Below, in pieces: positions 12,150 through 46,354 of a stretch of DNA of 64,000 nt; within the stretch, counting starts at the first letter, position 1; the number at the start of each line of letters is the position of its first letter. Location of the stretch: contig CALXCA010000002.1 of NCBI GenBank assembly GCA_944386685.1, forward strand, positions 16,649 through 80,648, given 5' to 3'. Made by a program: the position numbers and the translations under genes. Below the pieces are notes generated by a model that had not been told where the DNA came from, made no database searches, and was given only the letters and a program-made list of their open reading frames with translations. The DNA is from an uncultured Clostridia bacterium. GTDB taxonomy: Bacteria > Bacillota > Clostridia > TANB77 > CAG-508.

Positions 12150-12288
12150 TATAAAATTGACAAAAATAAAAAAATATGCTAATATACAAATATATTTTTT
12201 TGAAAATCCCTGTTCTAATTTAAGAGCAGTTTAAATAGATGCAGTAAATAAACTTAATTAGAAAGTCAATTGACAAGGAGGAAAAAAT

Positions 12289-12528
12289 ATGTTTTGCAAG
12301 TATTGTGGCAAGAAAATCGATGATGATAGTATTTTCTGTATGTTTTGTGGTAAAAGAGTAAATGGGCATAATGAGCGTAAAGTAAAAGAAAATTATCTTG
12401 AAGAAACTCATGATCACGAAAATGGAACTTATACAGCTCCGGATGGAAAAACATATACAGTAAGAAACCGTATATTATATGATAAAGACGGATGGGATGT
12501 AGGAAGAGTTCCTGATTGGTGGGGATAA
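12289..12528 (+). CDS. Small zinc-ribbon protein (79 aa)
   Basis: CxxC...CxxC at the N-terminus (FCKYCGKK...FCMFCGKR). GGAGG ribosome-binding site. Its own sigma-A-like promoter (TTGACA-17-TAATAT at about 12157-12185) and a terminator follow. Confidence 0.55.
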   Translation: MFCKYCGKKIDDDSIFCMFCGKRVNGHNERKVKENYLEETHDHENGTYTAPDGKTYTVRNRILYDKDGWDVGRVPDWWG

Positions 12529-12542
12529 TACAATCTCGAAAC

Positions 12543-12572
12543 AAAAGAGGTCGCAATTTGCGACCTCTTTTA
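12543..12572. terminator. Bidirectional rho-independent terminator
   Basis: aaaagaggtcgc-aaat-gcgacctctttt, between the convergent genes. Confidence 0.6.
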
Positions 12573-12624
12573 ATGTACACACAATTATAGCTCTAATTTT
12601 GGCTCATATCTTTCAAGCCACATA

Positions 12625-14482: not shown

Positions 14483-14652
14483 AAAAATCCTCCATATAAA
14501 TAATATATGAAGGATTATTAATTAAATTTACTTTAAATTAAAAAATTAAACATTTTTTTAAGATAAAAACTTTATATTTGAATTTAAAGAAAATTTAGAC
14601 ATTATTCTTATTTATGCTTTGAATTTGCGTAACTTAAAGTTTTATATTTTTC

Positions 14653-15291
14653 TTATTTAGAACTTTTTAAATAATATTTACAAAATTGTTTAACTGTGCA
14701 AGTATCACATAAAGGTTTTCTAGAATCACAGGTTTTTCTACCATGCCAAACAAAAAGATGATTTATATCTTTTAAATATTCTTTAGGAAAAATTTTTAAT
14801 AAATCTTGTTCAATTTTTTCTGGATCTGTTTCTAAAGAAAGTCCCATTCTGTTAGAAACTCTTTTTGCATGTGTATCAACAGCAATTCCTTTTGCAATTC
14901 CAAAAGCTTCTAATAAAATTACATTAGCACTTTTTCTACCAATACCAGGTAGAGTAAGAAGTTCATCCATAGTATGAGGTACTTCTCCATTAAACTTAGT
15001 TAAAACCATTTTTGCACATTCTTTTATATTTTTTGCTTTATTTTTATAAAATCCACAAGGGTGAATAATTTCTTCTAATTCTTTAATATCAATATTTGCA
15101 AAATCTTCAATTGTTTTGCATTTTTCAAATAATGCTGGTGTTGTTTTATTTACTCTTTCATCTGTACATTGGGCAGAAAGCATAACAGCAACAGTTATTT
15201 GAAAAGGATTTTTAAAATCAAGACTACATGTTGCATCTGGGTATGTTTGTTTTAATATATTTATAAAATTTACAATATCTGTTTTTTTCAT
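14653..15291 (-). CDS. nth: Endonuclease III
   Basis: HhH-GPD motif (LPGIGRKSANVILLEAFG) and the C-terminal [4Fe-4S] cluster loop C-x6-C-x2-C-x5-C. Confidence 0.85.
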   Translation of the reverse strand: MKKTDIVNFINILKQTYPDATCSLDFKNPFQITVAVMLSAQCTDERVNKTTPALFEKCKTIEDFANIDIKELEEIIHPCGFYKNKAKNIKECAKMVLTKFNGEVPHTMDELLTLPGIGRKSANVILLEAFGIAKGIAVDTHAKRVSNRMGLSLETDPEKIEQDLLKIFPKEYLKDINHLFVWHGRKTCDSRKPLCDTCTVKQFCKYYLKSSK

Positions 15292-26319: not shown

Positions 26320-26330
26320 AAAATAGAAAA

Positions 26331-26385
26331 CCAAGAAAATAAATTTTTATAAGTATTTATTTCCTTGGTTTTTTATGATATTATA
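26331..26385 (+). terminator. Terminator after the ABC exporter operon
   Basis: Imperfect hairpin aaccaagaaaata...tatttccttggtt followed by a T run. Confidence 0.4.
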
Positions 26386-26418
26386 CTAATGAGAGTATAA
26401 TTAAAGGAAGGTAAAGAT

Positions 26419-26616
26419 ATGGAAAAGAAATTAAAAATAATAATAGATAATTGTCCACAAAATCATAAATGTCCTGCAGTAAATGTATGTCCTGTAGGAG
26501 CATTATCACAAGAAGGCTTTAATGCACCTAAAATAGATTATAACAAATGTATTAAATGTGGAAAATGTTCAAATTTTTGCCCTAAAAAAGCATTAGTTTT
26601 AGAAGAAAATAATTAA
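26419..26616 (+). CDS. Small 4Fe-4S cluster protein (65 aa)
   Basis: CPAVNVCP and CIKCGKCSNFCP motifs. AAAGGAAGG ribosome-binding site. Confidence 0.6.
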   Translation: MEKKLKIIIDNCPQNHKCPAVNVCPVGALSQEGFNAPKIDYNKCIKCGKCSNFCPKKALVLEENN

Positions 26617-27097
26617 TGTGGAATAAAGATGGATAGATTAGAAAGATTTGAAAAAGCATTATCAGATATACTGAATGAATATGATAATTTGGAAGAATTT
26701 TAAAGATTTAATGTTTAATATTAAAAACTGTTTAAAAGGACTATTTAAACTTAATATTAATATAAATTTGCATATAAATAATTATAAAGATTGTACTAAT
26801 TACATTTTTTTCAATAATGAAAATAAAAAAATATAGTCATAACAAAGAATAAATGATTTGATTCATTTATTCTTTTTATATTATATATAATACTTATCTT
26901 AAATTACTTGTATTGAATAATTTATTTTAGTTTTTTAGGATTTTTGTATTATAGATATATAATTTATTGTTTTTTCCATTTTATAAATTTTGGAAAGTGG
27001 TTTTGTAATTTTGGCACATATAAAAAATATCTTGGTAGATTTGTAATGTTATGATTAAAAGTATAACTTAAAATTTTTGTAGAATTTTTAAATGTTC

Positions 27098-27130
27098 GTT
27101 GATTTTTTATAAGAAATAGTGTATAGTAAA
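27098..27130 (+). promoter_or_regulatory. Promoter for the small hydrophobic peptide gene
   Basis: TTGATT-17-TATAGT. Confidence 0.35.
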
Positions 27131-27211
27131 TAACGATAGAGATGAGATAGCAGAATGTTGGGCTACCACTTTCAATACTTGATATATTCGAGAGCAAGGA
27201 GGTGGTTGTTT

Positions 27212-27313
27212 ATGGGATTTATATTAACTTTAATATATGCTTTGGGATTCTCCCTAACTGTAAACATAGCCTTATTGTGTATTATATACATAATGTGGAC
27301 TAATAAACAATAA
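27212..27313 (+). CDS. 33-aa hydrophobic peptide, type I toxin candidate
   Basis: MGFILTLIYALGFSLTVNIALLCIIYIMWTNKQ. An AAGGAGGTG ribosome-binding site lies 8 nt upstream. Followed by a bidirectional hairpin terminator at 27318-27352. Confidence 0.4.
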   Translation: MGFILTLIYALGFSLTVNIALLCIIYIMWTNKQ

Positions 27314-27403
27314 AAAACAACACATTCTGCTTTTGCCAGTGGGAATGTGTTGCTAAAACAATTTATGTGGTAGCCACATTTTCTGTGGTTCTCATTTTCT
27401 ATC

Positions 27404-27432
27404 TATATTATACACAGGATTTTAATATTTGT
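27404..27432 (-). promoter_or_regulatory. Consensus sigma-A promoter firing antisense toward the peptide gene
   Basis: Minus-strand read is TTGACA-17-TATAAT. It points into the 3' end of the peptide mRNA, and the hairpin at 27318-27352 with a minus-strand U-tract serves as its terminator. Confidence 0.4.
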
Positions 27433-27485
27433 CAAATATGATGTTGGCAAAATTTTTTTGTATATTAGAAAAGAGGTCTATTGAA

Positions 27486-27810
27486 TATGTTTTTAAGTTC
27501 GGTTAGTTTTTGTAGAAATGATAAATGTAGTAAAAAAGATTCTTGTTTAAGATATACTACTGAAAATGATAATATAAAAAGTGAAACATATTTAGTATTA
27601 ACAGAAGAAGAATGTAATAAAAGTAAAAGCTATATCAACAAAGACGATTATTATAAAAAAATGATTATGAATATTATTGATGAAGTCCCTAATGATGATT
27701 TAGATAACAAAATGTTATTACAAATTTGTAATTCATTGTTAGACATATCTAAAAAATATGATTTAGAAAAAAAGCTAAAAGAAAAAATCAGAAAGTTAGA
27801 AAGTAAATAA
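27486..27810 (+). CDS. Hypothetical protein (about 108 aa)
   Basis: ORF only. A terminator hairpin follows at about 28001-28036 (aagtctgcaat...attacagacttttt). Confidence 0.4.
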
Positions 27811-28203
27811 TAAAAATGGTTTCTGCAATTTATAAAAATTGGTTTCTGCAAATATTTGCGATTTTTTCTGCAAGAGGAGAAAAATTTACACACATTTACA
27901 GGACTTTACAGGTCGAAAAGTATTGATTTTTAGGCAAAAAATGAGCCTACACGACTCTAAAAATCTTTTAAAAAGTTTTAAAAAAATAATAACAAAAAAG
28001 TCTGCAATCTAGCTTGTATCAAGCATTACAGACTTTTTAATATTGGTCGAGGCGAGGAGAATTTACTTTTGAAAATTGCTTATTTTCTAGCACTTCGACA
28101 TTTTTTGAATGTAGTTTGAATGCAGTAAATAAATTTTATTGAAAAATTTTTTAAATTTCTGTATAATAACTTTAAATAAAAATTATAAAAGGCGAGTGAA
28201 AAT

Positions 28204-28398
28204 ATGAAAATTAAATGTTTAAAATGTAATGATATAATTGAATCTTTAAGTGTTCACGATTATAAAAAATGTAAATGTGGAGCATGTTCAATTGATGGTG
28301 GAAATGAATATACGAGAATTGGTGGAGATGTTAAATACATTCATTGGGTATATGATGATGGACATGAAGAACCTGTACAAAAAAATAATGCAAAATAA
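28204..28398 (+). CDS. Small Cys-rich (zinc-finger-like) protein, 64 aa
   Basis: CLKCN...CKCGAC motifs. GGCGAG ribosome-binding site. First gene inside the element's left end. Confidence 0.5.
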   Translation: MKIKCLKCNDIIESLSVHDYKKCKCGACSIDGGNEYTRIGGDVKYIHWVYDDGHEEPVQKNNAK

Positions 28399-28421
28399 TA
28401 TTAATTGCATTATTTTTTTAA

Positions 28422-28520
28422 TACTGTTCAACACTATTCAGAACTGTTCAACACTGTTCAACACTGTTCAGACTATTTGAACTGTTCAATACTGTTCAGA
28501 ACTGTTCAATACTGTTCAAT
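28422..28520. repeat. Tandem array of about nine 10-11-bp direct repeats, CTGTTCA(A/G)NA
   Basis: actgttcaaca / ctattcagaa / ctgttcaaca x2 / ctgttcagact / ...ctgttcaata / ctgttcagaa / ctgttcaata / ctgttcaatt. The period is about one helical turn, as in iterons. Confidence 0.7.
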
Positions 28521-28533
28521 TTATAAATATATA

Positions 28534-29994
28534 TTATTGTTTTAATATATATCGTTTCTTTGGATCATTTATATTCGTTCCAACCCACTCAATGATTTGA
28601 AGTTCTTCTAATTTTTTTAAAACATTAAGAACTGTATTTTTTGATCTTCCTGTATATTTTATCAATTCTGTTGTCCCTGCTTCTCCTTTATCACTGATAT
28701 ATCTTATAATATTTCTTTCAAATGCAGGTAATTTTTCCCAGTCTTCTTTTATATTTAGTTTTTTCTGTAAAGTTTCTGATATTCTTTTATCACGCATAAC
28801 AATATTATTTTTTAAAGTTAATTTTAGTATATCTCCTTCTTCGTAAACATACTCAGGTTCATCTAAGAAAAACTTAGCCATTTCTTCATAAATTCTTGAT
28901 ACACCTTCGTTCAATTCTTTAACTAATCCTAAATCAACAAGTGTTTCTGATATTTTTGTATTTCTTGCATATCTAACTTTTTTCATATTTTCAAGTGTTA
29001 CAAGTCCTGGTAATTTTCCTGGACTTCTTATTTCCATTCTATCATCAAAAATAAAAATTTTTATGTGTTCACCTCTCATAGCATAATTTCTATGTGTAAC
29101 AGCATTGGTAATTCCTTCAAGCCATGCAAATTCAGGGTATTCTGGTATCTTCTCGAACACTCCATCTTTATTTAAATGATTAAAATCTCTTAATTGGCTT
29201 CTTATAAATTTTTGAACTTCAATGATTAATTTGTAGAGAGGTAATCTAAAAGTTTCTTCTTTGATTATATTTAAATTTTCACCAGTTTGCATATAAGTCC
29301 CTTCGTATTTTATAACTCTGACTCTTGCACTTGGAAAGAAAACTGTTGGATCTTTTGCAAAAAGCAATACACCAGCAGTTGTTAGATGTTCTTCATTTTT
29401 TACTTTTACTAAAAACCTTCTTGCTCTTAATATGTCAATAGGATCTTTGTCTATAGCTTTTATACTTTTTGCATAGATGTTAACCATATCTAAATCTATA
29501 TCATCAATTGAACTTTCTAATACCGGCTGATCTTCATATGATATTTCGGGTCTATCTACTTTTAATATTTGAATTTGCTCATCTGTTAATTTTATTGTAG
29601 AATCACCTCTTCTTAAATAAACTTCGTCTTTAACATTTCTTATTAAGCAATTGTGACTAATTTCAATATGTAATAGTAATATAAAATCTTCATGACCATT
29701 AGTATTTATTATATTCAATTTTTCAGTTTTTATTTCATGAATTGTTTTTAAATATTGTATACTACTTTTTAAAATGTCATTATCCTTATTTCCATAATTT
29801 TTAAATCCTTCTAATTTACCATCATCGGTTATTCCAATTGCTAAAGTTCCTCCATCCGCATTAGCAAATCCTGCAATATGGTTTGCTATTTCTTTTATAT
29901 CTTTTTTAGCACTTTTTCTATCAAATTTTTGATTTTCTTTAGCAAAACGCAAATATTCTTCAGTTAATTCTTCATTTAATTGTGATTGTAACAT
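28534..29994 (-). CDS. Schlafen/AlbA_2-domain plus HATPase_c_4 plus C-terminal wHTH protein
   Basis: N-terminal AlbA_2 signature (IANHIAGFANADGGTLAIGITDDGKLEG), a central GHKL-like region and a C-terminal winged helix (TVLNVLKKLEELQIIEW). Confidence 0.7.
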   Translation of the reverse strand: MLQSQLNEELTEEYLRFAKENQKFDRKSAKKDIKEIANHIAGFANADGGTLAIGITDDGKLEGFKNYGNKDNDILKSSIQYLKTIHEIKTEKLNIINTNGHEDFILLLHIEISHNCLIRNVKDEVYLRRGDSTIKLTDEQIQILKVDRPEISYEDQPVLESSIDDIDLDMVNIYAKSIKAIDKDPIDILRARRFLVKVKNEEHLTTAGVLLFAKDPTVFFPSARVRVIKYEGTYMQTGENLNIIKEETFRLPLYKLIIEVQKFIRSQLRDFNHLNKDGVFEKIPEYPEFAWLEGITNAVTHRNYAMRGEHIKIFIFDDRMEIRSPGKLPGLVTLENMKKVRYARNTKISETLVDLGLVKELNEGVSRIYEEMAKFFLDEPEYVYEEGDILKLTLKNNIVMRDKRISETLQKKLNIKEDWEKLPAFERNIIRYISDKGEAGTTELIKYTGRSKNTVLNVLKKLEELQIIEWVGTNINDPKKRYILKQ

Positions 29995-30011
29995 TTTTTA
30001 CTGCTCCTTTT

Positions 30012-30761
30012 CTATAATCTACTCATTATATCAATATACTCACCAGCAGTTAATACTGTTTTAGGTAAATGTAATTGAGTATAATAAGTATCTTTATTTT
30101 TTTGATATATAGCATCAATAATTTTGCAATTTTCATCTTTATCAATTGTCATTACTAAACCAAGCACATTATATTTTTGTGATAATTTTGTAGTATATAA
30201 AGCAATTCTATCAGTTGCATCAAGTGGCATTTCTTCATCATCAAAAGAATCAATCTCAACAATTATAATACTATTTTCTAAATCTTTAATTTTCATCATA
30301 ATTTGTGGTTTAGGATCTTTACTGTTTACAAAATCATTAAATATATTTTCTATTTCTAACATTGAAATATTTGTATTTGTTATAGTTTCTCCAAAAGTAG
30401 TTTTTCCTACTCCACAACATAATTCGTTTATTGCTGTGCTTAATGTAGTATCATTTTTGTAAATTTCTTTTACTTTATCCATTCTCTTTTTTGTAAAGTT
30501 GTATTTATCTTTAATACTAGATATATCAAGTGTATCTCTATCTGTTTCATCTACAAAAACATCTGGTGTTCTTCCAAGTAAATAATCTATTGAAACATTA
30601 AAAATTGTAGCTAGTTTTTTTATTGCTTCTATATTTGGCTCTCTCATATCTAATTCATATTTTGATATTGCTGCAGGTTCTACTCCTAATCTTGTTGCGA
30701 TATCTTTTTGCGTAAATCCATTTTTTTCTCTTAAATACTTTATTCTTTCGCCATTTGTCAT
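30012..30761 (-). CDS. XRE-family HTH repressor with a C-terminal domain of unknown function
   Basis: N-terminal Cro/C1 HTH (IKYLREKNGFTQKDIATRLGVEPAAISKYELDMREPNIEAIKKLATIFNVSIDYLLG). The roughly 170-aa C-terminal domain is uncharacterised. Confidence 0.75.
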   Translation of the reverse strand: MTNGERIKYLREKNGFTQKDIATRLGVEPAAISKYELDMREPNIEAIKKLATIFNVSIDYLLGRTPDVFVDETDRDTLDISSIKDKYNFTKKRMDKVKEIYKNDTTLSTAINELCCGVGKTTFGETITNTNISMLEIENIFNDFVNSKDPKPQIMMKIKDLENSIIIVEIDSFDDEEMPLDATDRIALYTTKLSQKYNVLGLVMTIDKDENCKIIDAIYQKNKDTYYTQLHLPKTVLTAGEYIDIMSRL

Positions 30762-30794
30762 AATATTTTCTCCTTCTCAATTTATGTTTAAATT

Positions 30795-31026
30795 TTATCA
30801 TATCCATTTTGGAAAGTCAATAATTGCTGATAATTAAATATTTTTACTATAAAAGTTTTAGAAAGTTTAAAAAATTTTGAAAAAGATATTGACAATATAT
30901 CCATTTTGGATTATTATATAAATATCCAAAACGGATACGGATAAAATTGAAAGGAGGTATGCTATAAAGGTAAAAATATGAATAGAGATTTATTTTTTAC
31001 TTATCAAGTATCCAAAATGGATTTAT
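30795..31026. promoter_or_regulatory. Divergent promoter region with three copies of the ATCCATTTTGGA/TCCAAAATGGAT operator palindrome
   Basis: Copies at 30802-30813, 30898-30910 (paired with atatccaaaacggat at 30921-30935) and 31009-31024. A TTGACA-17-TATTAT promoter at 30889-30917 overlaps the middle copy. Confidence 0.5.
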
Positions 31027-31049
31027 GAATTTCAAAGGAGGACAAAGTT

Positions 31050-31295
31050 ATGAATGAAAATTTTAGTGAAGAACTTAAGAAAGAATTAGTAAAACAAGCT
31101 ATAAAAAGCTTAGATGACCCATTTAAAATGCTAACTGTAAAAGATGTAGCAAAAGATTTATATATGGGAGAAAACAAAACAAACGAAATATTTAATCGTG
31201 CAGATTTTCCATCTGTGAATATTGGCAAAACAAGAAAAATCCAAAAAATTGCTTATATTCTTTGGAAGATGGAAAAAAGGATTGATGTTATATGA
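31050..31295 (+). CDS. Excisionase-like HTH (HTH_17) DNA-binding protein
   Basis: MLTVKDVAKDLYMGENKTNEIFNRADFPSVNIGKTRKIQKIAYILW resembles the Xis/MerR-like HTH_17 fold. AAAGGAGG ribosome-binding site. Confidence 0.55.
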   Translation: MNENFSEELKKELVKQAIKSLDDPFKMLTVKDVAKDLYMGENKTNEIFNRADFPSVNIGKTRKIQKIAYILWKMEKRIDVI

Positions 31296-31454
31296 AAAAT
31301 TTAAAAAGCATTTATACAAAAGTACACTTTGGCGAGCAGACTTTTGCACAAATGCCACATAAAGATATTCGCAATCTTTATATAAATAGTATATCATTTT
31401 TCCTTATTTTTAACAATAGAAAATTAAGTAGAAATACTGGAAAGTGAGTAAATT

Positions 31455-32258
31455 ATGGAAAAAACAAAAAGATATTATTGGATAAAATTAAAAACTGATT
31501 TCTTTAATTTAGCTGAAATAGATTTCTTATTATCACAAAAAGATGGTTGCCAGTATATAGTTTTATATCAAATGCTATGCCTACAAACTGCTAACAATAA
31601 TGGAGAATTGGCATCACGAGTTGGAGAAATGATTATTCCCTATGATCCAGATAAAATAGCAAGAGATACTAAATATTTTAGTAAAGATACTGTTATTGTT
31701 GCTATGGAACTATTTAAAAAACTAAATTTAATTTATACAGATGATGGAATTTGCTTAAAAATAGCTGGATTTGAAAATATGGTAGGTAGTGAAACTGGTT
31801 GGGCAAAACAAAAAAGAGAACAAAGAGAAAAGCAGAAATTATTAAGTGGACAATGTCCACCAAATAGTCCACCAGAGATAGATATAGATAAAGAGTTAGA
31901 TATAGAGATAGATGAAGATATAGAAAATAATGGATTGAATGATGGATTAGATTTAATTAATTTAAAATTAAATAAAACAAATTTAGTTCAAAAAGAAACA
32001 TCAAAATATAATCCAATTTTTATACAAAAAAAGATATATTTTGAAAACTCAGAATATTTACCAGAAAGTGTACTAACTCAATTAAAACTATATCAATTGG
32101 CAGTAAAAAGATTATATGACAATAAGCAAGGTGAGTTATTGGAAAAAGTAACTTTACCTATACTAGAAAAAGTATTTGGTAATGTTTTGAAAAATAAAAA
32201 TATTGAAAACATAATAGAATATTATATTTCAAGTTTAACAAATGAACTTGCAAAATAG
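31455..32258 (+). CDS. Phage-type replisome organizer / replication initiator (N-terminal Phage_rep_org_N-like)
   Basis: N-terminus RYYWIKLKTDFFNLAEIDFLL...YIVLYQMLCL is typical of the replisome-organizer N-domain. The C-terminal half is acidic and low-complexity. Confidence 0.6.
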   Translation: MEKTKRYYWIKLKTDFFNLAEIDFLLSQKDGCQYIVLYQMLCLQTANNNGELASRVGEMIIPYDPDKIARDTKYFSKDTVIVAMELFKKLNLIYTDDGICLKIAGFENMVGSETGWAKQKREQREKQKLLSGQCPPNSPPEIDIDKELDIEIDEDIENNGLNDGLDLINLKLNKTNLVQKETSKYNPIFIQKKIYFENSEYLPESVLTQLKLYQLAVKRLYDNKQGELLEKVTLPILEKVFGNVLKNKNIENIIEYYISSLTNELAK

Positions 32259-32369
32259 GAGGTCAAGGTTGAAAAATAATTATAATTTTGGCGTTGTCAA
32301 ACTTTTTTTCCTAGCCAAAATTTAATTCTTTTCCAACCAAATTTATATGAGGAAGGAATGTGAGTAATT

Positions 32370-33548
32370 ATGAAGAGAAAGAGAAGAAGAGGAAATGGCG
32401 AAGGCACAGTATTTGAAGATAAGAAAAATAAAAGATGGATTGGTCAATATATATCTGGAACATCTGCAGAGGGAAAAGCTATTAGAAAATCAGTATATGG
32501 AAAAACTCAAAAAGAAGTTTTAAATAAATTAAATGAGATTAAATATAAAATGAATAATGACATGTACGTTGAAAAGAATGGAATTGAATTAGTAAAAATT
32601 ATGGAAGATATAAGAGAAGAAAAATTGGCATCTAATACAATTTCAGGTGGTCAATATGCTAGATTAAAATGGACTATCAATAAAATTAAAAATAGCAAAA
32701 TTGGAAATATGAAAATACAGGATATAACCAAAGATGATATTCAAGAATTTTTAAATTCTATTAAAGATTTAAGTGATTCGTATATTAAGAAAATTTATGA
32801 ACAATTTGTACAAGCATATCGTAGAGCAGAAATAAAAAAATACATTTCATATAACCCAATGTATGAAGTTATAAAGCCTAAAAGCAATAAGCAAACAAAA
32901 GTAGTTGAAGCATTAAATATCAATGTGCAAAAAGCATTTACGCAATATTTGAATAAAGTTTCAATAGAAGATGAACCATATAAAAATATATTTCTAATCC
33001 AAATGTATATGGGATTAAGAATAGGCGAAGTACTTGCATTAAGTAAAGAAAATATTGATTTAGAAAATAAAGTTTTATATGTTAAGAGAACACTAACAAA
33101 TGACAAAGAATTTGCCATTATTTTAGGAAATAAGACAAAAACATATTCAGGTAATAGAACTTTACCTATTCCAGATTTTTTAGTGCCAATTTTTGAAGAA
33201 CAATTAAAATATACAAATGAAAATTTACACAATTTAATATTTACAAATAATGATAGTTATATAAGAACATCTGCAATTAATAAAGAACTAAAAAGAATTT
33301 TCAAAGAAGAATTAAATGTAGATTCTAAAAATATAAGCACACATTGTTTAAGACATACCTATGGCACAAGATGTATTGAAGCAGGAATGACAGCAGTTGT
33401 TTTGCAAAGATTAATGGGACACAAAGATGTAACTGTAACTTTAAATACATACACATCTGTGTTCAATAAATTTAAAGAAGATGAACTTGAAAAAGTAAAT
33501 ACTTATTTAAATAATAACCAATTAAATTTTGTAAATAACAGCAATTAA
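32370..33548 (+). CDS. int: Tyrosine site-specific integrase
   Basis: C-terminal catalytic region with R...HxxR...Y (LRIGEVLAL; HCLRHTYGTRCIEAGM; LMGHKDVTVTLNTYTSV). N-terminal SAM-like domain. Confidence 0.85.
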   Translation: MKRKRRRGNGEGTVFEDKKNKRWIGQYISGTSAEGKAIRKSVYGKTQKEVLNKLNEIKYKMNNDMYVEKNGIELVKIMEDIREEKLASNTISGGQYARLKWTINKIKNSKIGNMKIQDITKDDIQEFLNSIKDLSDSYIKKIYEQFVQAYRRAEIKKYISYNPMYEVIKPKSNKQTKVVEALNINVQKAFTQYLNKVSIEDEPYKNIFLIQMYMGLRIGEVLALSKENIDLENKVLYVKRTLTNDKEFAIILGNKTKTYSGNRTLPIPDFLVPIFEEQLKYTNENLHNLIFTNNDSYIRTSAINKELKRIFKEELNVDSKNISTHCLRHTYGTRCIEAGMTAVVLQRLMGHKDVTVTLNTYTSVFNKFKEDELEKVNTYLNNNQLNFVNNSN

Positions 33549-33565
33549 ATACCAAATATATAGTA

Positions 33566-33614
33566 TCGCAAGCTTCCTATTTGTAAATACAAGTACTACA
33601 AATAGAGCTTGCAA
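33566..33614. promoter_or_regulatory. Candidate oriT
   Basis: Inverted repeat atcgcaagcttcctatttgta...tacaaatagagcttgcaaa between int and mobC. Confidence 0.4.
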
Positions 33615-33671
33615 AAATTGGGAGAACCCAAACCCCTTTAAATTGTTTTAGGGAAAATATGGAGGGACAAA

Positions 33672-33980
33672 ATGTTCAAGGATAAGAAAATAAATATACG
33701 ATTAACAGAAAAAGAAAAAAGTATAATAGAATCAAAAGCCAAAAAATTAAATATGACTCTTACAAAATTTATTGTAAGTTCTTGTTTAAAAGATAAAATC
33801 GTTATCGTAAATGGACTAGATAAAGTAGATTCTGAACTTAGAAGAATAGGAAATAATATCAATCAATTAACAAGACTTGCAAACGAAAAAATAATTACGG
33901 TAATTGATTTGAAGGAACTGCGAATGGAAGTGAATAATATATGGCAATTATTGAAGCAATTAGTTCAAAAGCAAACATAA
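33672..33980 (+). CDS. mobC: MobC-type mobilization accessory protein (ribbon-helix-helix)
   Basis: NIRLTEKEKSIIESKAKKLNMTLTKFI (RHH) and LRRIGNNINQLTRLAN (MobC signature). Confidence 0.65.
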   Translation: MFKDKKINIRLTEKEKSIIESKAKKLNMTLTKFIVSSCLKDKIVIVNGLDKVDSELRRIGNNINQLTRLANEKIITVIDLKELRMEVNNIWQLLKQLVQKQT

Positions 33981-35176
33981 AAAGAATTATAAGCTATGTT
34001 ACACAAGATAAAAAAACAAATGTAAATTTAATTTCTGGAAAAGATTGTATGGCTGAAAGTTGTTTAGAAGAAATGCTATACACAAAAAATCTATATCACA
34101 AAAATAGTGGTAGACAATATATACATATTATTCAATCATTTGATCCTAAAGATAATTTATCTGCAGAACAAGTTCATAATGTTGGAATTAAATTAGCAAA
34201 TACTTTTAATGGATTTCAAGTATTAGTTGCAACACATATTGATAAAAATCATTTGCATAATCATTTAGTTATAAATTCTGTATCATTTGAAAATGGATAT
34301 AAAATTCAAATGAGCAAAAAAGATTTACAATATTTAAAAGATTACTCTGATAAATTATGTTTAGAAATTGGAGCTTCAGTTATTCCTAAAAAAGAAAAAA
34401 CAAATTATATAAAAAGAAATGAATATAGAGTAGCCAAGCAAGGTAAAAGTTGGAAATTTAAATTAATGAATGCAATTGATTTATCATTAGCAGAAAGTAA
34501 TACAAAACAAGAGTTTATAAAAAATATGAATAAATTAGGATATCAAGTTAATTGGACAGATACAAGAAAATACATTACATATACAACACCTGAAGGATAT
34601 AAATGTAGAGATAATAAATTATATGATGAAAAATATTCAAAAGGAGCAATGGAAAATGAATTTAGAAGAATTGAAAAAGAACAATCAAATAGTACAAGAA
34701 AATCAAGTAGTTCCATCAATAGTAAAGATGGATTATTATCTGATAGAACCAGAGATAATCAAGGATTTATATCAAATGGAACAAGCAATAGTAGAAGATA
34801 TAGCAATTATGAAAAAGAAATTACAAGATACACAAGAAAAATTATTAAAGGACAATATTCGAATGAACGAAGAAATGAAAAAATTGGTAGAGGAAAAATT
34901 GAAAAATCAATTTTACAATCTGAAACAAGAATTGAAAGAAACGGAAGAAGAACAGAAAAGCAAGATTTCCAAAATAAAATGGAAAACAGGGTTAATAACA
35001 TTCTTAGTGGGATTATTGTCATCAGCAATATGGTTTCTGACTCACAAGTAAATAATAGACATAAAAGAAGAATTAGAAGATATAGAACTTTATCAAAACA
35101 AGCTATGAAAGAATATGCAATGAAGAAAGCTAATTCTAGTGGTTTTGATTGGTTTGAAGATGAAGAGGAAATGTAA
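33941..35176 (+). CDS. MobA/MobL-family relaxase with an uncertain C-terminal frame
   Basis: N-terminal 227 aa match PF03432 relaxases (MAIIEAISSK...; HIIQSFDP; HIDKNHLHNHLVINSV histidine triad). From about 34620 onward, the +1 frame (34623-35051) encodes a coiled coil plus TM, which is more protein-like. Confidence 0.7.
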   Translation: MAIIEAISSKANIKRIISYVTQDKKTNVNLISGKDCMAESCLEEMLYTKNLYHKNSGRQYIHIIQSFDPKDNLSAEQVHNVGIKLANTFNGFQVLVATHIDKNHLHNHLVINSVSFENGYKIQMSKKDLQYLKDYSDKLCLEIGASVIPKKEKTNYIKRNEYRVAKQGKSWKFKLMNAIDLSLAESNTKQEFIKNMNKLGYQVNWTDTRKYITYTTPEGYKCRDNKLYDEKYSKGAMENEFRRIEKEQSNSTRKSSSSINSKDGLLSDRTRDNQGFISNGTSNSRRYSNYEKEITRYTRKIIKGQYSNERRNEKIGRGKIEKSILQSETRIERNGRRTEKQDFQNKMENRVNNILSGIIVISNMVSDSQVNNRHKRRIRRYRTLSKQAMKEYAMKKANSSGFDWFEDEEEM

Positions 35177-35617
35177 ATAAAATCAATTGTTTTTAGGAAA
35201 GCCATCTTAAAATCCTTGAATTCTAGCTAAAAATATGGTATATTATTGATACAAATTTAGCTAATAAGCTAATTAATTTTATTATCTCCTTATGGAGTGA
35301 ACATATAGAAACAGTAAACATCCAAATGAATATTTAAGGAGGAATTTTTAATGGGAATGGCAGAGCTAATGAAGAAAAAAGCAATACCTGGAACTTCTGT
35401 AAAGCGTTCAATAAAAATTATAAAAAAGTGAATCGTGCTGAAGTGGTAGAGTTAAATCGCACTCTTGAACCCATTATTAGGCAGAATCATAGAGAACTTA
35501 TAGCTTCTTGGGAAGAAGAACATGATAAAACTGTTGGAATATAATTTTATCATATTGTTTAGGTTTTTTATGAAATTGTAGTAACTCGTAAACTGATTAG
35601 TTAAGGAGGTAATTAAA

Positions 35618-36097
35618 TTGAAAAAGCATGAATTAACTTTAAAGACAACAGTAATACTTTCAATAGCTTCAGGTCTGTTATTTGGACTAATGTTATTTAT
35701 TTTAACTAATAATCTTCTACCAAGAGATAACAAAATACTTTATGTAACAACTGGGATTATATGTTTTGTGCTTTTATTTGATGGATTTATTGGGTTTATT
35801 GTATTTTCAGAAGTATTAGTATTTACAATTGTATTAAATAAGAAAGCTAAAAAATATCATAAAAGAATGTTGATAAAAATTCATGAATGTTTATCGACTA
35901 AAGATTTTTCTGAAATAACATTAAAAATGCATGATGATAGTATTATACCGTTAGAAAAATTTATCTGTAAGGCAAAATTAGATGAAGATGGTAATATTAT
36001 CTATAATATTTCTCTTAATTTTGAATCAGAAACAGATGATTATGAAAATTTCTTAAAACATTTTTCCATTGAGAATACAGATAAATTTAGTAATTAA
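35618..36097 (+). CDS. Hypothetical membrane protein (159 aa), cargo of the element
   Basis: Three predicted TM helices. No recognised motifs. Confidence 0.45.
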   Translation: MKKHELTLKTTVILSIASGLLFGLMLFILTNNLLPRDNKILYVTTGIICFVLLFDGFIGFIVFSEVLVFTIVLNKKAKKYHKRMLIKIHECLSTKDFSEITLKMHDDSIIPLEKFICKAKLDEDGNIIYNISLNFESETDDYENFLKHFSIENTDKFSN

Positions 36098-36295
36098 TAA
36101 TGCTTTTTTCAAAATGTCCCAGGCTGTTGCTTGGGATATTTTGAATGCAATTATTACATTCAAAATAGTTTAGCTGAATGCAATATTGAATGCAGTAACA
36201 CAAATATAGAGAAATTTTGAAAAAGTCTGAGAAAAGAAAAAAGGCTTAAAATAGCCAAAAAACAATTTAAGGAGCTTTTTGAAAGCTCCTTTTTC

Positions 36296-36371
36296 TGGTC
36301 GAGGCGACAGGGTTCGAACCTGCGACCTCATGGTCCCAAACCACGCGCGCTACCAACTGCGCTACGCCTCG
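36296..36371 (-). tRNA. tRNA-Pro (anticodon TGG)
   Basis: Minus-strand read CGAGGCG-TA-GCGC-AGTTGGTA-GCGC-G-CGTGG-TTTGGGA-CCATG-AGGTC-GCAGG-TTCGAAC-CCTGT-CGCCTCG-A-CCA folds as a cloverleaf with T-loop GTTCGAA and an encoded CCA. A promoter (TTGATT-17-TAATAT) lies upstream on the minus strand. Confidence 0.9.
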
Positions 36372-36572: not shown

Positions 36573-37271
36573 CTAATTTCTACGTTTTCCAAATAATGAT
36601 AAAATTCTAAGGAAAATGTTAATAAAATCTAAATATAATTGCATTGCACCATAAACGTAAAGTTTTTCATCATCACAAAAACCAGATTCTTGCATTAACT
36701 TTATTTTATTAATATCATAAATTGTAAGTCCAAAGAAAATTAATAAAATAGCCCAATCTAAAACAATATCCAAAAGTGAACTACCAACAAATATGTTAAT
36801 AACAGTTAAAACAAGTCCAACAAGAAGAGCTACAGTTAAAATAGAACCCCATTTTGAAATATCTTTTTTTGTTGTATAACCAATTAATGATAAAATTCCA
36901 AATAGACCAGCAGTTCCAGCAAAAGCATAAACAATAGAAGTTAATTCAAAAACCGGAAAAATAACTGATAATGTAAAACCATTCAAAAATGCATATGCAA
37001 AAAATAGTATAGTAACCATTGTAGGAGAAAGTTTTCTAAATAATAAAGAAAAAACTAAAACAACTACAAGTTCAGCTATAACTAAAGGAAAGAAAAATCC
37101 ATTCATAATAACTGAAACAAATAATCCTGAACTGTATACATAATATGCTGTACCAGCACTAGCAAGTAATCCTAAAAACATTCTAAAAAAAGTATTAGTA
37201 AGTATAGAATTAGTTTCAACTGAATGTATTGCATCACCATTTTCATAAGATTCCATAAAAATCACCTCCAT
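36573..37271 (-). CDS. Bax inhibitor-1/YccA family membrane protein
   Basis: Seven TM segments and the C-terminal conserved region (YGAMQLYLDFINIFLRILSLFG) typical of the BI-1/UPF0005 family. Confidence 0.75.
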   Translation of the reverse strand: MEVIFMESYENGDAIHSVETNSILTNTFFRMFLGLLASAGTAYYVYSSGLFVSVIMNGFFFPLVIAELVVVLVFSLLFRKLSPTMVTILFFAYAFLNGFTLSVIFPVFELTSIVYAFAGTAGLFGILSLIGYTTKKDISKWGSILTVALLVGLVLTVINIFVGSSLLDIVLDWAILLIFFGLTIYDINKIKLMQESGFCDDEKLYVYGAMQLYLDFINIFLRILSLFGKRRN

Positions 37272-38225: not shown

Positions 38226-38398
38226 AAAAATTCCCTCCAAACATTAAAATATATTTACAAACATTTTATGTGTAAAATAATAAAAAGTCAATAATTAATA
38301 TTCAATTTTTATAATCTATATAAATAAAATGATTTATATAAAAAAGTTGAAAAAGATACTATAACATGATAAAATAACTTAGGAAAGGAATGAAAGAT

Positions 38399-39670
38399 AT
38401 GAAAACATTATTAAAAAACGGAACATTAATTGATTACAAAACAAATACATTTGGAAAATTCGATATACTAATAGAAGAAGACAAAATAGTAAAAATAGAG
38501 AAAAACATTGAAGAAAAAGCAGACAAAATAATTGACTGTACAAATTTATATATTATGCCCGGAATGATTGATATTCATTGCCATTTAAGAGAGCCTGGCT
38601 TTGAATATAAAGAAACTATTGAAACGGGTGCAAATAGTGCTGTTTGCGGAGGATTTACAACAATTTGCCCTATGCCAAATACAAAACCAACCCCAGACAG
38701 TGCTATTATTTTGCAAAAAATCATAGAAGAAGGAAAAAGAGTAGGGTTATGCAATATTTTGCCATATGCATCAGTAACCAAAGGAGAAAAAGGAGAAGAA
38801 TTAGTAAATTTTGAAGAATTGAAAAAAGCAGGAGCAATAGCATTTTCAGATGACGGAATGCCTGTTGTAAATAGCAGAACAATGAGACAAGCAATAATTG
38901 AAGCTGATAGATTAGGAACATTTGTATCATCACATTGTGAAGAAAAAACAGTATCACAAGGAGCAATAAATGCAGGAAAAGTTGCAGAAGAACTTGGAGT
39001 AGAAGGAGTATTACCAGAAGCGGAAGAAATAATGGCAGCAAGAGAAATTGTAATATCTGAAACAAATAATGTAAGAGCACATATATGTCATATTAGTACA
39101 AAAACTTCAAAAAATATGATTAGAGATGCCAAAAAAAGAGGAGTAAAAATAACATGTGAAACTTGCCCACATTATTTTACATTTACAGTAGATGAAGTAA
39201 AAAAATCTGGAACAAATGCAAAAATGAATCCACCATTAAGAGAAGAAAAAGATAGACTTGCAATAATAGAAGGCTTAAAGGAAGGAACAATAGACTGCAT
39301 AATAACAGACCATGCACCACATTCAGAAGAAGAAAAAGCACAAGATTTATCAAAAGCACCAAATGGTATAATAGGATTTGAAACAGCTTTACCAGCAGAA
39401 ATAATGAACCTAGTAGACACTGGAGATATATCATATTTGGATTTAGTAAAACTTACATCATACAATCCTGCAAAATTAATAAAAATAGACAGAGGAACAA
39501 TAGAAGTCGGAAAAGTAGCTGATATAACAATATTTGACCCAAATGAACAATATGTATATACAAAAGAAATGATTGTATCAAAATCAAAAAACAGTCCTTT
39601 TATAGGAAAAAAACTAAAAGGAAAAGTAAAATATACAATTGTATCAGGAAAAGTCGTATATAAATCATAA
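38399..39670 (+). CDS. pyrC: Dihydroorotase
   Basis: DIHCHLREPG metal-binding motif and an amidohydrolase fold along the full length. Confidence 0.85.
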   Translation: MKTLLKNGTLIDYKTNTFGKFDILIEEDKIVKIEKNIEEKADKIIDCTNLYIMPGMIDIHCHLREPGFEYKETIETGANSAVCGGFTTICPMPNTKPTPDSAIILQKIIEEGKRVGLCNILPYASVTKGEKGEELVNFEELKKAGAIAFSDDGMPVVNSRTMRQAIIEADRLGTFVSSHCEEKTVSQGAINAGKVAEELGVEGVLPEAEEIMAAREIVISETNNVRAHICHISTKTSKNMIRDAKKRGVKITCETCPHYFTFTVDEVKKSGTNAKMNPPLREEKDRLAIIEGLKEGTIDCIITDHAPHSEEEKAQDLSKAPNGIIGFETALPAEIMNLVDTGDISYLDLVKLTSYNPAKLIKIDRGTIEVGKVADITIFDPNEQYVYTKEMIVSKSKNSPFIGKKLKGKVKYTIVSGKVVYKS

Positions 39671-39699
39671 ATTTTCAAAATAGAAAGGAAAGAAAAAAC

Positions 39700-43909: not shown

Positions 43910-43986
43910 GCGCTCGTAGTTTAGTTGGATAGAATGGCAGGCTACGAACTTGCAGATCGGGGGTTCGAATCCCTCCGGGCGCACCA
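43910..43986 (+). tRNA. tRNA-Arg (anticodon ACG)
   Basis: GCGCTCG-TA-GTTT-AGTTGGATA-GAAT-G-GCAGG-CTACGAA-CTTGC-AGATC-GGGGG-TTCGAAT-CCCTC-CGGGCGC-A-CCA. A TTGAAA-17-TATAAT promoter lies at 43868-43896. Confidence 0.85.
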
Positions 43987-44028
43987 ATAACGTTTTTGTT
44001 CGAACGCCATCAAACAGAATTGTTACAA

Positions 44029-44058
44029 AAATCAATCAGTAAAATGGTTGATTTTTTT
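44029..44058 (+). terminator. Terminator after tRNA-Arg
   Basis: aatcaa-tcagtaaaatgg-ttgatt followed by T9. Confidence 0.45.
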
Positions 44059-44151
44059 TTGAAAAAATACTGTATATAAAAAGAAAATTTGATTGACTTT
44101 TACAAACAAATGTTTTATAATATTGTTTGAAATATAAAAAAATATTGTGAA

Positions 44152-44970
44152 ATGGAGATGATAATATTGAAAGATATAAATAATGCTAATAAATCATTTG
44201 AAGATATCAAGCATATTGATGAAAATGGAATAGAATATTGGAATGCCAGAGAATTACAAAATGTTCTAAATTATAAGGAATGGAGAAAATTTGAAAATGT
44301 AATAAACAAAGCAAAAGAATCTTGTAAAAACAGTGACATTAGTGTTCTTGAACATTTTGTCGACGTCGACAAGTTGTCAAAACGTGCTAATAATGCAGAA
44401 GTTGTAATCAAAGATTACAAATTAACACGTTATGCTTGTTATTTAATAGCACAAAATGGAGATACTAGAAAGAAAGTAATTGCACTTGCGCAAACATATT
44501 TTGCAATTCAAACTAGAAAACAAGAAATTAGTGAAAAAGAGTACACTTCATTAACAGAAGATGAAAAAAGATTTTATCAAAGAAATCTTACAAGAAAAGG
44601 AAATTATTCACTAAATCAAACAGCAAAAAGTGTGGGTGTTAAAAATTTTGATAAATTTCATAATGCTGGATATAAAGGCTTATATAATGGTGAGACTGCT
44701 GATGATATTGCAAAAAGAAAAGGATTAAGATATAGAGAGAATATTTTAGATAATATGGGAAGTGAAGAACTTGCAGCAAATCTTTTTCGCATTACGCAAA
44801 CAGAATCAAGATTAAAAAGAGATAAAGTTGATACTGAAAAGAAAGCTTGTGATACTCATAATAAAATTGGAAAAATAGTTAGAAAAGCGATTAAACAGGC
44901 AGGACGGAACTATGCCAGAAGAATTGCCTACACCTCAAAAGAGCTTAAAACAATTAAAAAAAGAAAATAA
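44152..44970 (+). CDS. dinD: DNA-damage-inducible protein D-like (Bro-N/KilA-N type N-terminal domain)
   Basis: Collinear with E. coli DinD ([39 protein letters not shown]...[35 protein letters not shown] versus FEEIRHYGTEGQEFWSARELAPLLDYRDWRNFQKVLARA...[35 protein letters not shown]). Confidence 0.75.
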   Translation: [272 protein letters not shown]

Positions 44971-45320
44971 GAGGAGTTTGAAGAAAACAGAAAAATAGTT
45001 AATAAACTGGTTCCACAATGTGGAACTGATAAGTAACAGTGCCACATTATTAAAGAAAGAGGATAAAACAAATGTATAATGAAAAAATAGATGAAATAAT
45101 TTATCTGCTAAAAAATAATAGTATATCAGATTTTATAGCTAGTTTATCTTTAATTGTTGCAATAATAGCTGTTATAGATTTATTATGATAGATAATAAAG
45201 AAATGTATCATTTAGGTGCTTCTATAAAAGATTTGGGCAAAAAATGTTTTGGAATTAATAAAATAGAAGATATGAAAATTATAGAAAAAATATTTAATTT
45301 ATTTTGAAGGAGTTTAAGAT

Positions 45321-45950
45321 ATGAAAAATACTATAATTTATTTAATTAGACATGCAGAAACAATTGAAGAAAACGGAATTAGAAACACAAACGAAGATTC
45401 CCAAATAATTAATGAAAAAGAAATATTATCTGTATATGGAGAACAACAATCACAAAAATTAAGCAGAAATATCGAACTAAAAAATATTGATATTATATGG
45501 TCAAGTAGTTATGCAAGAGCAAAAGCAACTGCAAAATATATTGCAAGTAAAAATAATTTACCAATTAATATAGACAGTAGCTTAAATGAAAGAAAACTAG
45601 GAAATTTAAAAGAATTAGGAGAATTTATGAAGGACAAAAAAACACAAGATCCTTCCCAAGAACAATTATTAGATAGAAAATTTAAAACTTCTGATGGAGA
45701 GAGTGCAGAAGATACAAGACAGAGAATGACTAAATTTTTTGATAAAATTTTACAAGAATATAATTGGAAAAAGATTGCTGTTGTAAGTCATGGTGGTTCA
45801 ATAAAATTTTTCCTACTAAACTGGTGCAAAGTAAATGAAGATGTTAAATTAGTATATAAAAATACTGTTTTAGATATAACATCACCTTGCTTATTAAAAT
45901 TAACTTTTAGAGAAAATGAGCTAGTAAATATAGAACAAATAAAACAATAA
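45321..45950 (+). CDS. Histidine phosphatase family protein (phosphoglycerate-mutase-like)
   Basis: N-terminal LIRHAET catalytic His motif, then SSSYARA..TA and HGG near the C-terminus. Confidence 0.65.
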   Translation: MKNTIIYLIRHAETIEENGIRNTNEDSQIINEKEILSVYGEQQSQKLSRNIELKNIDIIWSSSYARAKATAKYIASKNNLPINIDSSLNERKLGNLKELGEFMKDKKTQDPSQEQLLDRKFKTSDGESAEDTRQRMTKFFDKILQEYNWKKIAVVSHGGSIKFFLLNWCKVNEDVKLVYKNTVLDITSPCLLKLTFRENELVNIEQIKQ

Positions 45951-46075
45951 TAATATAAATATATAGAATATAAAACAAATTAAATAAATTTGAGAATCAC
46001 ACAATAAAAAATGTTTGACTATTAAATAGTTATAGTATATAATGCAATAAAAGAAAAAATTCTAGTTTTAAATAT

Positions 46076-46354
46076 TTGGAAGGAAAAACTAAAATGTTAG
46101 ATAATAAATATGCTAAAGCATATACAGAGGTATTAGAGATAATAAAATATTTTCCTGAAGAAGAATATAATAAAATACCAAAAGAAAAAATTGAATTTTA
46201 TAAAAATAATAAGGATAAAGATTACAAATTTATTATTGATCCAAGAATTGATTTATCAAAGCAAAACGTATCTAAAGAAGCAAGTGCAATTATTGTAACG
46301 ATATTTAAAGATTATTTTGCTTCTGAAGAACAAAAGAAAAAGGTATTGATATAA
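46076..46354 (+). CDS. Hypothetical protein (92 aa); possibly the N-terminal fragment of a disrupted gene
   Basis: ORF only. Its end overlaps an open frame that continues downstream. Confidence 0.4.
   Translation: MEGKTKMLDNKYAKAYTEVLEIIKYFPEEEYNKIPKEKIEFYKNNKDKDYKFIIDPRIDLSKQNVSKEASAIIVTIFKDYFASEEQKKKVLI

Follow-up and report, generated by a model that had tools for sequence, protein, structure and literature searches.

NBU1 and NBU2 are integrative mobilizable elements (IMEs) of Bacteroides, about 10 kb in size and inserted at the 3' ends of tRNA-Leu and tRNA-Ser (PMC5704250). Here, we describe an element of similar organization in a 64-kb stretch of the chromosome of an uncultured gut Clostridia with a GC content of about 26% (contig CALXCA010000002.1; the whole stretch is referred to as the window, and coordinates are those of the window unless another contig is named). 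The interval 28044-36307 (8.3 kb) is very probably a complete IME that entered the 3' end of tRNA-Pro(TGG) through site-specific recombination by its tyrosine integrase. Like NBU1 and NBU2, which a conjugative element mobilises in trans, it has a tyrosine integrase, a short duplicated core from the tRNA 3' end, its own relaxase with a candidate origin of transfer (oriT), and no mating pore (PMC5704250). The NBU elements belong to another host phylum, however, their integrases and Mob proteins are unrelated in sequence, and NBU1 encodes a primase and only one Mob protein, whereas the window IME has a tRNA-Pro target, a MobC protein, a phage-type replisome organizer, an XRE switch, and an integrase in the middle of an operon rather than at its end.

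Other described systems share part of this organization. Streptococcal IMEs such as IME_Sag2603_tRNAlys resemble the window IME in their Firmicute host, tyrosine integrase, use of tRNA 3' ends, and tandem accretion (PMC5704250). The Sphingobacterium IME Tn6031 also combines a tyrosine integrase with the 3' end of tRNA-Pro (PMC5704250); its host belongs to the Bacteroidota and, compared by description, a relationship to the window IME is unlikely. Some IMEs have a replisome organizer gene with a putative role in maintenance, but those tabulated mostly use serine recombinases and insert inside genes of integrative conjugative elements (ICEs), unlike the window IME (PMC5704250). The combination of a tyrosine integrase, tRNA-Pro, a replisome organizer, and a MobC/PF03432 relaxase pair, as well as the host group, is absent from the table in PMC5704250. 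In gut Clostridia, IMEs with PF03432/MOBP7 relaxases and defence cargo are abundant, and their relaxases are related to those of Tn1549-family ICEs (PMC12084326). This MOBP7 superfamily, found in Faecalibacterium and other gut Clostridia, is like the window IME in its PF03432 relaxases and frequent phage-defence cargo, the likeness being at the level of PF03432 (PMC12084326); its hosts are Oscillospiraceae, whereas those of the window family are uncultured low-GC Clostridia.

Insertion at the 3' end of tRNA-Pro

The 12-mer TGGTCGAGGCGA has two exact copies in the window, at 28044-28055 (attL core) and 36296-36307 (attR core), against none expected, and it was present in 0 of 100 dinucleotide-preserving shuffles of the window. 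Allowing up to two mismatches, we found no further copies in the window, nor a degenerate core that would mark an older island in the left flank. ARAGORN placed the integration target, an intact tRNA-Pro(TGG) gene, at 36296-36371 on the minus strand, with an Rfam tRNA score of 67.2 bits; the Rfam scan of the window returned nothing beyond two tRNAs. Because the tRNA spans these positions, the right 12-mer is the reverse complement of its last 12 nt, TCGCCTCGACCA, with the CCA encoded, and since the neighboring bases differ between both copies, the repeat extends over 12 bp and no further. The tRNA-Pro gene stays intact because integration duplicated its final 12 nt. The first-pass annotation of this DNA, made by reading the sequence alone, had claimed that the 12-mer occurs exactly twice and that its second copy is the 3' end of tRNA-Pro(TGG), and both statements agree with the counts, the shuffles, and the two tRNA searches.

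We then looked at this site in other strains, retrieving same-species contigs through the exact protein of the tRNA neighbor, a Bax1-I family gene at 36573-37256 on the minus strand. The contigs retrieved are more than 99% identical to the window across about 10 kb on the tRNA side. In one of them, L010, tRNA-Pro carries a single 12-mer, and the bases immediately after it, ATAGTAAAAAGTCTGTAATGC, are those found to the left of position 28044 in the window. This uninterrupted junction between tRNA-Pro and the left flank, with one copy of TCGCCTCGACCA, is the empty site whose existence the first-pass annotation had proposed to check. An unoccupied attB thus exists in a strain of the same species, and the element is a discrete insertion. 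Contig L006 contains the same 8.3-kb insert, with a copy of the 12-mer on either side, while in other same-species contigs homology to the window on the tRNA side begins at 36290-36296, 0 to 6 bases inside the element. Using the left-flank gene (27487-27810) as the anchor, further copies of the element were found, all of them with the left junction ...cagactttttaatat followed by TGGTCGAGGCGA and then ggagaattt.

The empty site also explains a hairpin located just outside the left end (27990-28038, minus strand; fold -19.4 kcal/mol, z = -5.3). In L010, this hairpin comes directly after the CCA end of tRNA-Pro, while in the window it is 8.25 kb away from the tRNA. It is the native terminator of tRNA-Pro, displaced by the insertion, and marks the old attB flank. 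Its former place is occupied by a hairpin of the element (36269-36291), terminator-like on both strands, which substitutes for it. The terminator noticed at first pass is therefore real (fold z = -5.3), and only its origin had to be corrected.

Backbone genes and predicted cis-acting sites

In a search that included one genome per species, we found integrases 87-99% identical to that of the window in about 25 species-level metagenome-assembled genomes (MAGs), labelled uncultured Clostridia or Clostridium sp. and derived from human, mouse, rabbit, goat, and chicken guts. Both ends of the element and the 12-bp repeat are conserved in this family, and a delimited subset of 17 elements (7.8-10.4 kb) was used for gene-presence counts. 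BLAST and open reading frame (ORF) clustering recovered a conserved backbone of seven genes, namely, the XRE repressor, an 81-aa ORF, a 51-aa ORF, the replisome organizer, the integrase, MobC, and the relaxase, and all seven are intact in the window copy. Megablast of the whole element gave no match among 72,556 plasmid records or in the phage collection, and the integrase relatives in IMG/VR are only about 40% identical. Given the lack of DNA-level matches to known plasmids or phages, the family, which is widespread, is apparently undescribed, within a type of element that is well known.

Every ORF of at least 50 aa in the element was scanned against Pfam, NCBIfam, PHROGs, and PADLOC. The XRE-family repressor (30012-30761, minus strand), present in 17/17 delimited elements, has an N-terminal HTH_3 domain (E = 2.3e-16; RstR-like in NCBIfam) and a C-terminal domain of about 180 aa; neither this domain nor the C-terminal half of the relaxase has a match in Pfam. 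Between the repressor and the rightward genes, a divergent regulatory region (30762-31049) contains four operator-like palindromes ATCCAWWWYGGAT at 30802, 30899, 30924, and 31010, and elsewhere in the window there is a single further site of this type, with one mismatch. The rightward promoter TTGACA-17-TATTAT (30889-30917) faces the mobility operon, with one operator lying between its hexamers, and 16 of the 17 relatives have the same number of operators at the same spacing. An XRE repressor with palindromic operators had been read from the sequence before, and the HTH_3 match and the four sites (30802-31022) are in line with it.

The first gene of the operon is the 81-aa ORF (31050-31295, plus strand), annotated at first pass as an HTH_17 excisionase-like gene. 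It has no direct match to PF12728 (HTH_17) at E <= 10, and a PDB profile search also gave nothing meaningful. Its profile, aligned to that of a PF12728-annotated protein from contig L001, gave an hhalign probability of 98.6% (E = 1.2e-15), and its homologs are found directly upstream of related integrases in L035-L038 and L002/5/8. Because of this profile-profile relation and of the homologs abutting int in other elements, the 81-aa protein is a probable excisionase (recombination directionality factor [RDF]); the earlier label holds as remote homology and gene position, and not as a direct Pfam match. The start of the 51-aa ORF (31292-31447, plus strand; 15/17 delimited elements) overlaps the stop of the 81-aa ORF, and no family match was found for it in the Pfam, PADLOC, NCBIfam, and PHROG scans. 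It is followed by a DnaD-like replisome organizer with a Phage_rep_org_N domain (31455-32258, plus strand; PF09681 E = 3.7e-11, phrog_5968 E = 2.4e-38), which probably maintains the excised circle, and by a 392-aa tyrosine integrase (32370-33548, plus strand; PF00589 E = 1.2e-24, phrog_1 E = 3.4e-68) with candidate catalytic residues, assigned by motif, R217, H325-x-x-R328, H351, and Y361. Both had been named correctly from the sequence, as their Pfam and PHROG profile matches indicate.

Sites that such an integrase could use are found inside both ends. The left (P') arm (28056-28130, plus strand) has two direct copies of TGAATGYA, at 28106-28113 and 28117-28124, conserved in 20 aligned left ends, which keep TTTTTGAATGTrGTTTGAATGCAGT; homology decays just distal to these motifs. 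The right (P) arm (36136-36295, plus strand) contains an inverted TGAATGYA pair at 36142-36162 (TGAATGCA...TACATTCA), kept across 21 aligned right ends, direct copies at 36175 and 36187, and the terminal hairpin 36269-36291, in which the aligned ends show compensatory changes from GGAGC/GCTCC to GAGAC/GTCTC. Six of the 13 TGAATGYA matches of the window fall within the two arm segments (28106-28124 and 36142-36194). These clusters, which the first reading had already likened to arm-type sites, are conserved in relatives and make good candidates for this role. A family alignment had also brought up CTCC...GGAG as core-type inverted repeats, but their association between the arms is inconsistent and they were dropped.

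The operon ends with a mobilization module. The MobC/NikA-like ribbon-helix-helix relaxosome accessory protein (33672-33980, plus strand; PF21983 E = 1.8e-19, PF05713 E = 2.3e-11) was recognized as such at first pass. The relaxase (33941-35176, plus strand; 411 aa) had been called MobA/L, but at E <= 0.01 its only Pfam match is PF03432 (E = 4e-33), with partial matches to SAG1250 and TraI_MobP in NCBIfam, so that the MobA/MobL (PF03389) label was replaced by MOBP type, as its plasmid relatives also indicate. Its motifs are Y19 and H99-x-D-x3-H-x-H-x-H (HIDKNHLHNH at residue 99). In the spacer between int and mobC, we found a candidate oriT (33563-33640, plus strand), an inverted repeat GCAAGCTTCCTATTTGTA...TACAAATAGAGCTTGC followed by TTGGGAGAACCCAA. 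The repeat is near-invariant over 22 aligned sequences, with conservation above that of the flanking genes, and folds with -23.4 kcal/mol (z = -4.6). The cis sites of the family thus appear to be under purifying selection.

None of the ORFs of the 8.3-kb interval codes for a type IV secretion system (T4SS) component, a VirB4, or a coupling protein according to the Pfam, NCBIfam, PHROG, and PADLOC scans; the genes of the window outside the element are housekeeping ones (LeuS, DnaG, SigA, PheST, Ffh, pyr genes, and ABC transporters). With a relaxase and MobC but no conjugation-pore genes, the element is therefore an IME, and the ICE class was rejected. The layout of a tRNA-targeting IME proposed at first pass is upheld by the integrase, the candidate excisionase, the relaxase and MobC, the replisome organizer, the lack of a T4SS, and the empty site in L010.

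The mobilization module raises the question of whether the element is instead a mobilizable plasmid able to integrate, for which the replisome organizer and an origin would support an episomal life and the chromosomal copy would be facultative. Over residues 1-242, the relaxase shares 46% identity with those of small Clostridium botulinum plasmids, of which pRSJ2_1 (the one examined) is typed MOBP and "mobilizable," and the relaxase relatives are found mainly on plasmids typed mobilizable. Like the window IME, the C. botulinum plasmids (pRSJ2_1 and the 16.3-kb plasmid of ATCC 3502) have an adjacent, overlapping pair of MobC and PF03432 relaxase genes; the mob module is most like theirs, and one such plasmid also has a site-specific integrase. 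However, these are free plasmids with no DNA-level similarity to the element, only the mobilization module being common to both. Considering that the plasmid records gave no megablast match, that all family members with examinable ends are integrated by tRNA-Pro or in a tandem array, and that no circular-looking contigs were recovered, a plasmid identity is very unlikely despite the replisome organizer gene.

Other traits bring to mind a phage satellite of the phage-inducible chromosomal island (PICI) type, in which a helper phage would lift the XRE repression, the replisome organizer would drive replication, and the DNA would be packaged in helper capsids. The divergent XRE repressor facing xis and rep genes, the phage-type replisome organizer and integrase (by PHROGs), the size of about 8 kb, and the tRNA target all fit this type. 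A complete MobC-relaxase-oriT (candidate) module does not, and the PHROG scan revealed no terS, capsid-remodelling, or other packaging genes; close relatives are also missing from phage records and IMG/VR, where integrases are about 40% identical. We consider this origin scarcely credible, and an IME remains the preferred reading.

Integration hotspot, signs of movement, and proposed mechanism

In strains of the window species, the nucleotide after the CCA of tRNA-Pro is followed by the empty flank, by this IME, or by an element of another type, of which there are at least six. In same-species contigs, at least three types other than this IME begin right behind the left 12-mer. The tRNA-Pro gene is therefore an integration hotspot with at least seven element types, counting this IME. 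Among the other occupants are RepA_N/Mob_Pre elements, whose integrase has 435 aa, RepA_N/TnpV elements, and two elements with integrases of 459 aa and 455 aa, the latter also with an S24 repressor and DnaB; a further one, in L002, L005, and L008, combines two integrases with a TED/SpaA adhesin and with HTH_16 and sigma-70-like regulators. The integrases of these occupants are 35-42% identical to that of the window. This IME often lies in a tandem array, at the position distal to the tRNA, and tandem arrays were also found in other species (L011, L015, L024, L028, L032-L034, and L055). Tandem accretion at shared att sites is established for IMEs (PMC5704250) and matches the arrays described here.

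Two of the other occupants deserve mention. The one in L002/L005/L008 (10.9-20.7 kb; about 10 kb of it is visible) codes for two tandem tyrosine integrases, a homolog of the 81-aa ORF, HTH_16, a sigma-70 region 4 protein, a Spo0A-like response regulator, and an 869-aa TED/SpaA adhesin. Possibly this occupant is an ICE, which would make it a candidate helper. At L074 6558-6590, another element at the same left junction begins with TGGTCGAGGCGAcagggatcgaa, so that about 23 nt of the tRNA-Pro 3' end are duplicated, compared with 12 here, and different integrases at the hotspot therefore use cores of different lengths.

Variation in the core provides information about the crossover and about the movement of the elements. 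The repeat consensus across species is TGGTCGRGGYGA. In L014, L018, L034, and L069, the attL core departs from the attR core at position 9, and in L028 it does so at positions 7 and 12. The attR of L014, L018, L028, and L034 lies next to the tRNA and agrees with it at the differing positions, and in L069 it is attL that differs from the tRNA-Pro sequence of that species. L024 has the same position-9 difference, but its attR adjoins a second element and not the tRNA. In the standard integration model, attP supplies the right part of the core at attL. Since the differences occur only at positions 7, 9, and 12, strand exchange would take place within positions 1-6 (TGGTCG, the CGACCA of the tRNA), and elements with a variant attL core would have come from hosts with a different tRNA-Pro sequence. 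These variants are the best available sign of recent movement between hosts, which they suggest at the sequence level.

Such movement bears on the possibility that the element is the decayed remnant of an ICE or an immobile fossil island. It has no conjugation-pore genes, one of its small ORFs is frameshifted, and its mobility is deduced rather than directly observed, all of which would fit a remnant. Nonetheless, none of its seven backbone ORFs is disrupted and this compact gene set is present in about 25 species, the direct repeats match perfectly, strains of one species differ in having or lacking the element, the attL cores derived from other hosts point to recent transfer, and the cis sites are apparently under purifying selection. 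A remnant is thus extremely unlikely.

For the element understood as an IME, we infer a cycle of excision, replication, and transfer via a helper. The XRE repressor, bound to the four ATCCAWWWYGGAT operators, would silence a single rightward operon comprising the 81-aa ORF (RDF), the 51-aa ORF, the replisome organizer, the integrase, MobC, and the relaxase. Upon derepression, the integrase and the HTH_17-like RDF would assemble at the TGAATGYA sites of both arms and recombine attL with attR, with strand exchange in the first ~6 bp of the core. The replisome organizer would then recruit host replication proteins to maintain the circle, and MobC and the MOBP-type relaxase would nick the conserved inverted-repeat oriT between int and mobC. 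As the IME has neither a T4SS nor a coupling protein, the relaxase-DNA complex would leave through the mating pore of a co-resident conjugative element, and in the recipient the element would reintegrate at tRNA-Pro.

Several observations weigh against the view of a complete, mobile IME. The excised circle was not detected: an exact scan of metagenome contigs for the attP junction, a contig-level version of the check suggested at first pass, yielded two contigs, neither of them circular-looking, and the resolvable one is a tandem array, which by itself accounts for the junction; the same scan of IMG/VR gave nothing. No helper element is present in the window and none was identified. The N-terminal 85 residues of the integrase have no Pfam match even at E <= 10, arm-binding domains included, and the nick site, operators, and arm sites are predictions from sequence. 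Finally, the left flank of the empty-site contig L010 is 88.7% identical to the window, compared with 99.4% for the right flank, and is wholly divergent beyond 27510. The region to the left of the insertion site is therefore itself variable.

This region (26320-28043, 1.7 kb) is gene-poor in the window, with a 65-aa ferredoxin and small ORFs, while L010 has other genes there (11505-14668), coding for 321-aa, 172-aa, and 337-aa LRP1-like beta-propeller proteins; the shared 540 bp are 88.7% identical. It resembles a second variable region, or the remains of an old island, beside the hotspot. Within it, a segment of about 370 bp (27083-27449; ORF 27213-27313) encodes a very hydrophobic 33-aa peptide, MGFILTLIYALGFSLTVNIALLCIIYIMWTNKQ. 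The segment recurs, inverted and with 94.8% identity, beside a related element in the MAG of another species (L011 3940-4306), and has no match in Rfam. A type I toxin or another small dispersed module is one possibility.

Cargo slots and family significance

Besides the backbone, the element has two replaceable regions, slot 1 at 28131/28371-30004 and slot 2 at 35180-36136. Slot 1 contains a 64-aa DUF7695 zinc-ribbon-like protein (28204-28398, plus strand; PF24749 E = 4.9e-18), found in 4/17 delimited elements, and a 486-aa protein with SLFN_AlbA_2 and HATPase_c_4 domains and a C-terminal winged helix-turn-helix (wHTH) (28534-29994, minus strand; Pfam), which is a candidate defence or regulatory cargo gene. 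The latter protein matches phrog_12156 over its full length (E = 8e-100) and has homologs of 31% identity in temperate actinophages, one of which adjoins the integrase in Gordonia phage Eviarto. PADLOC reported it as "pAgo," but the match covers only the N-terminal Schlafen/ATPase part of a model of 1121 positions and, being limited to this fused N-terminal domain, is not evidence for an Argonaute system.

Slot 2 contains a 159-aa predicted membrane protein (35618-36097, plus strand), identical in many metagenome contigs and with no significant match in Pfam, PADLOC, NCBIfam, or PHROG, and a 26-aa ORF (35351-35545, plus strand). The small ORF has a strong ribosome-binding site and ends in ...ATA AAA AAG TGA, with an A_AAA_AAG heptamer at 35419-35425 and a TGA, and a -1 shift would add 38 codons to give 64 aa. 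Twelve loci in 11 contigs, several of them from different samples, have exactly this arrangement, which therefore is not a sequencing error. A_AAA_AAG is a classical bacterial -1 slippery site, and the ORF could be either a pseudogene or a case of programmed frameshifting. The cargo listed at first pass (a Schlafen/AlbA_2-HATPase protein, a 159-aa membrane protein, and small peptides) coincides with the Pfam results and the ORF map.

Between the two genes of slot 1 lies a tandem array of about 10 copies of the 10-bp AAYACTGTTC (28420-28520, plus strand; Tandem Repeats Finder [TRF] period 10, 10.3 copies). ACTGTTCA occurs eight times in the array, versus 1.9 expected for the whole window. The array sits between the convergent 3' ends of the DUF7695 and SLFN/HATPase_c_4 genes and is helically phased. 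It was seen only in the window, L006, and L011 (12 copies, 5971-6091), and no comparable array was found in the variants L026 and L071. L017 has an unrelated array of three 42-bp units at the same place (5892-6017), beside a different HATPase_c_4 protein, and retains the same replisome-organizer gene cluster. The first-pass annotation had described an 11-bp iteron-like array, and an iteron origin for Rep would follow from it. Yet its period is 10, it is confined to the variable slot 1, and it is missing from most family members; it tracks the cargo and not the conserved replisome organizer, and the iteron-origin reading is therefore rejected. The array may be a set of binding sites for the wHTH domain of the cargo protein.

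The cargo of the relatives is diverse. A Fic protein is found next to XRE in 12 of the 17 elements, the abortive-infection-type genes AbiTii and AIPR occur in slot 1, and other elements carry different HATPase_c_4, DUF3800, DUF4238, or NUDIX proteins, an ABC transporter, or several large proteins without a family. By analogy with the relatives that have AbiTii or AIPR in the same slot, a phage-defence role of the cargo is plausible. One could go further and see the family as a dedicated two-slot shuttle of anti-phage genes among low-GC gut Clostridia, with the SLFN-HATPase_c_4-wHTH protein, DUF7695, and the array forming an undescribed DNA-binding module for defence or maintenance. In such a module, the array would be the binding platform of the protein, because in L017 another HATPase_c_4 protein comes with another array. 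We regard this broader proposal as unlikely.

Cargo and backbone of the window copy differ in how closely they resemble those of L006. Both arms and both cargo slots are identical in the two copies, with no differences at 28044-28418 and 35087-36307, while differences amount to 1-4% across 30021-35086 (from XRE through rep and int to the relaxase) and to 6.6% in the regulatory spacer. Identical cargo and arms with a divergent backbone point to recombination between the backbones of co-circulating family members, as this mosaic pattern of the sequences suggests.

Farther from the element, two other loci vary among strains of the same species. L004 and L009 are without exactly 38295-39681, which holds a 426-aa dihydroorotase-like gene (38390-39670), and the flanking pyr genes are 99% identical. 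At 43910-46345, a tRNA-Arg(acg) gene has Metallophos, Bro-N (44152-44970), and His_Phos_1 genes around it, which in L005 (431-4375) are replaced by a 1314-aa AAA/nSTAND3/Peptidase_M41 protein. The tRNA-Arg region may be another variable or defence locus.

Every feature of the window IME has precedent; the knowledge of how IMEs work is unchanged by it, and a specialist would not be surprised. What it provides is a precisely delimited copy, marked with its ends, core, arm sites, operators, and candidate oriT, that can serve as the reference for an IME family of about 25 uncultured gut Clostridia species. This copy is of use for annotating mobile DNA and defence-gene traffic in gut metagenomes, and the integrase/attP pair could serve the engineering of these hard-to-culture hosts.

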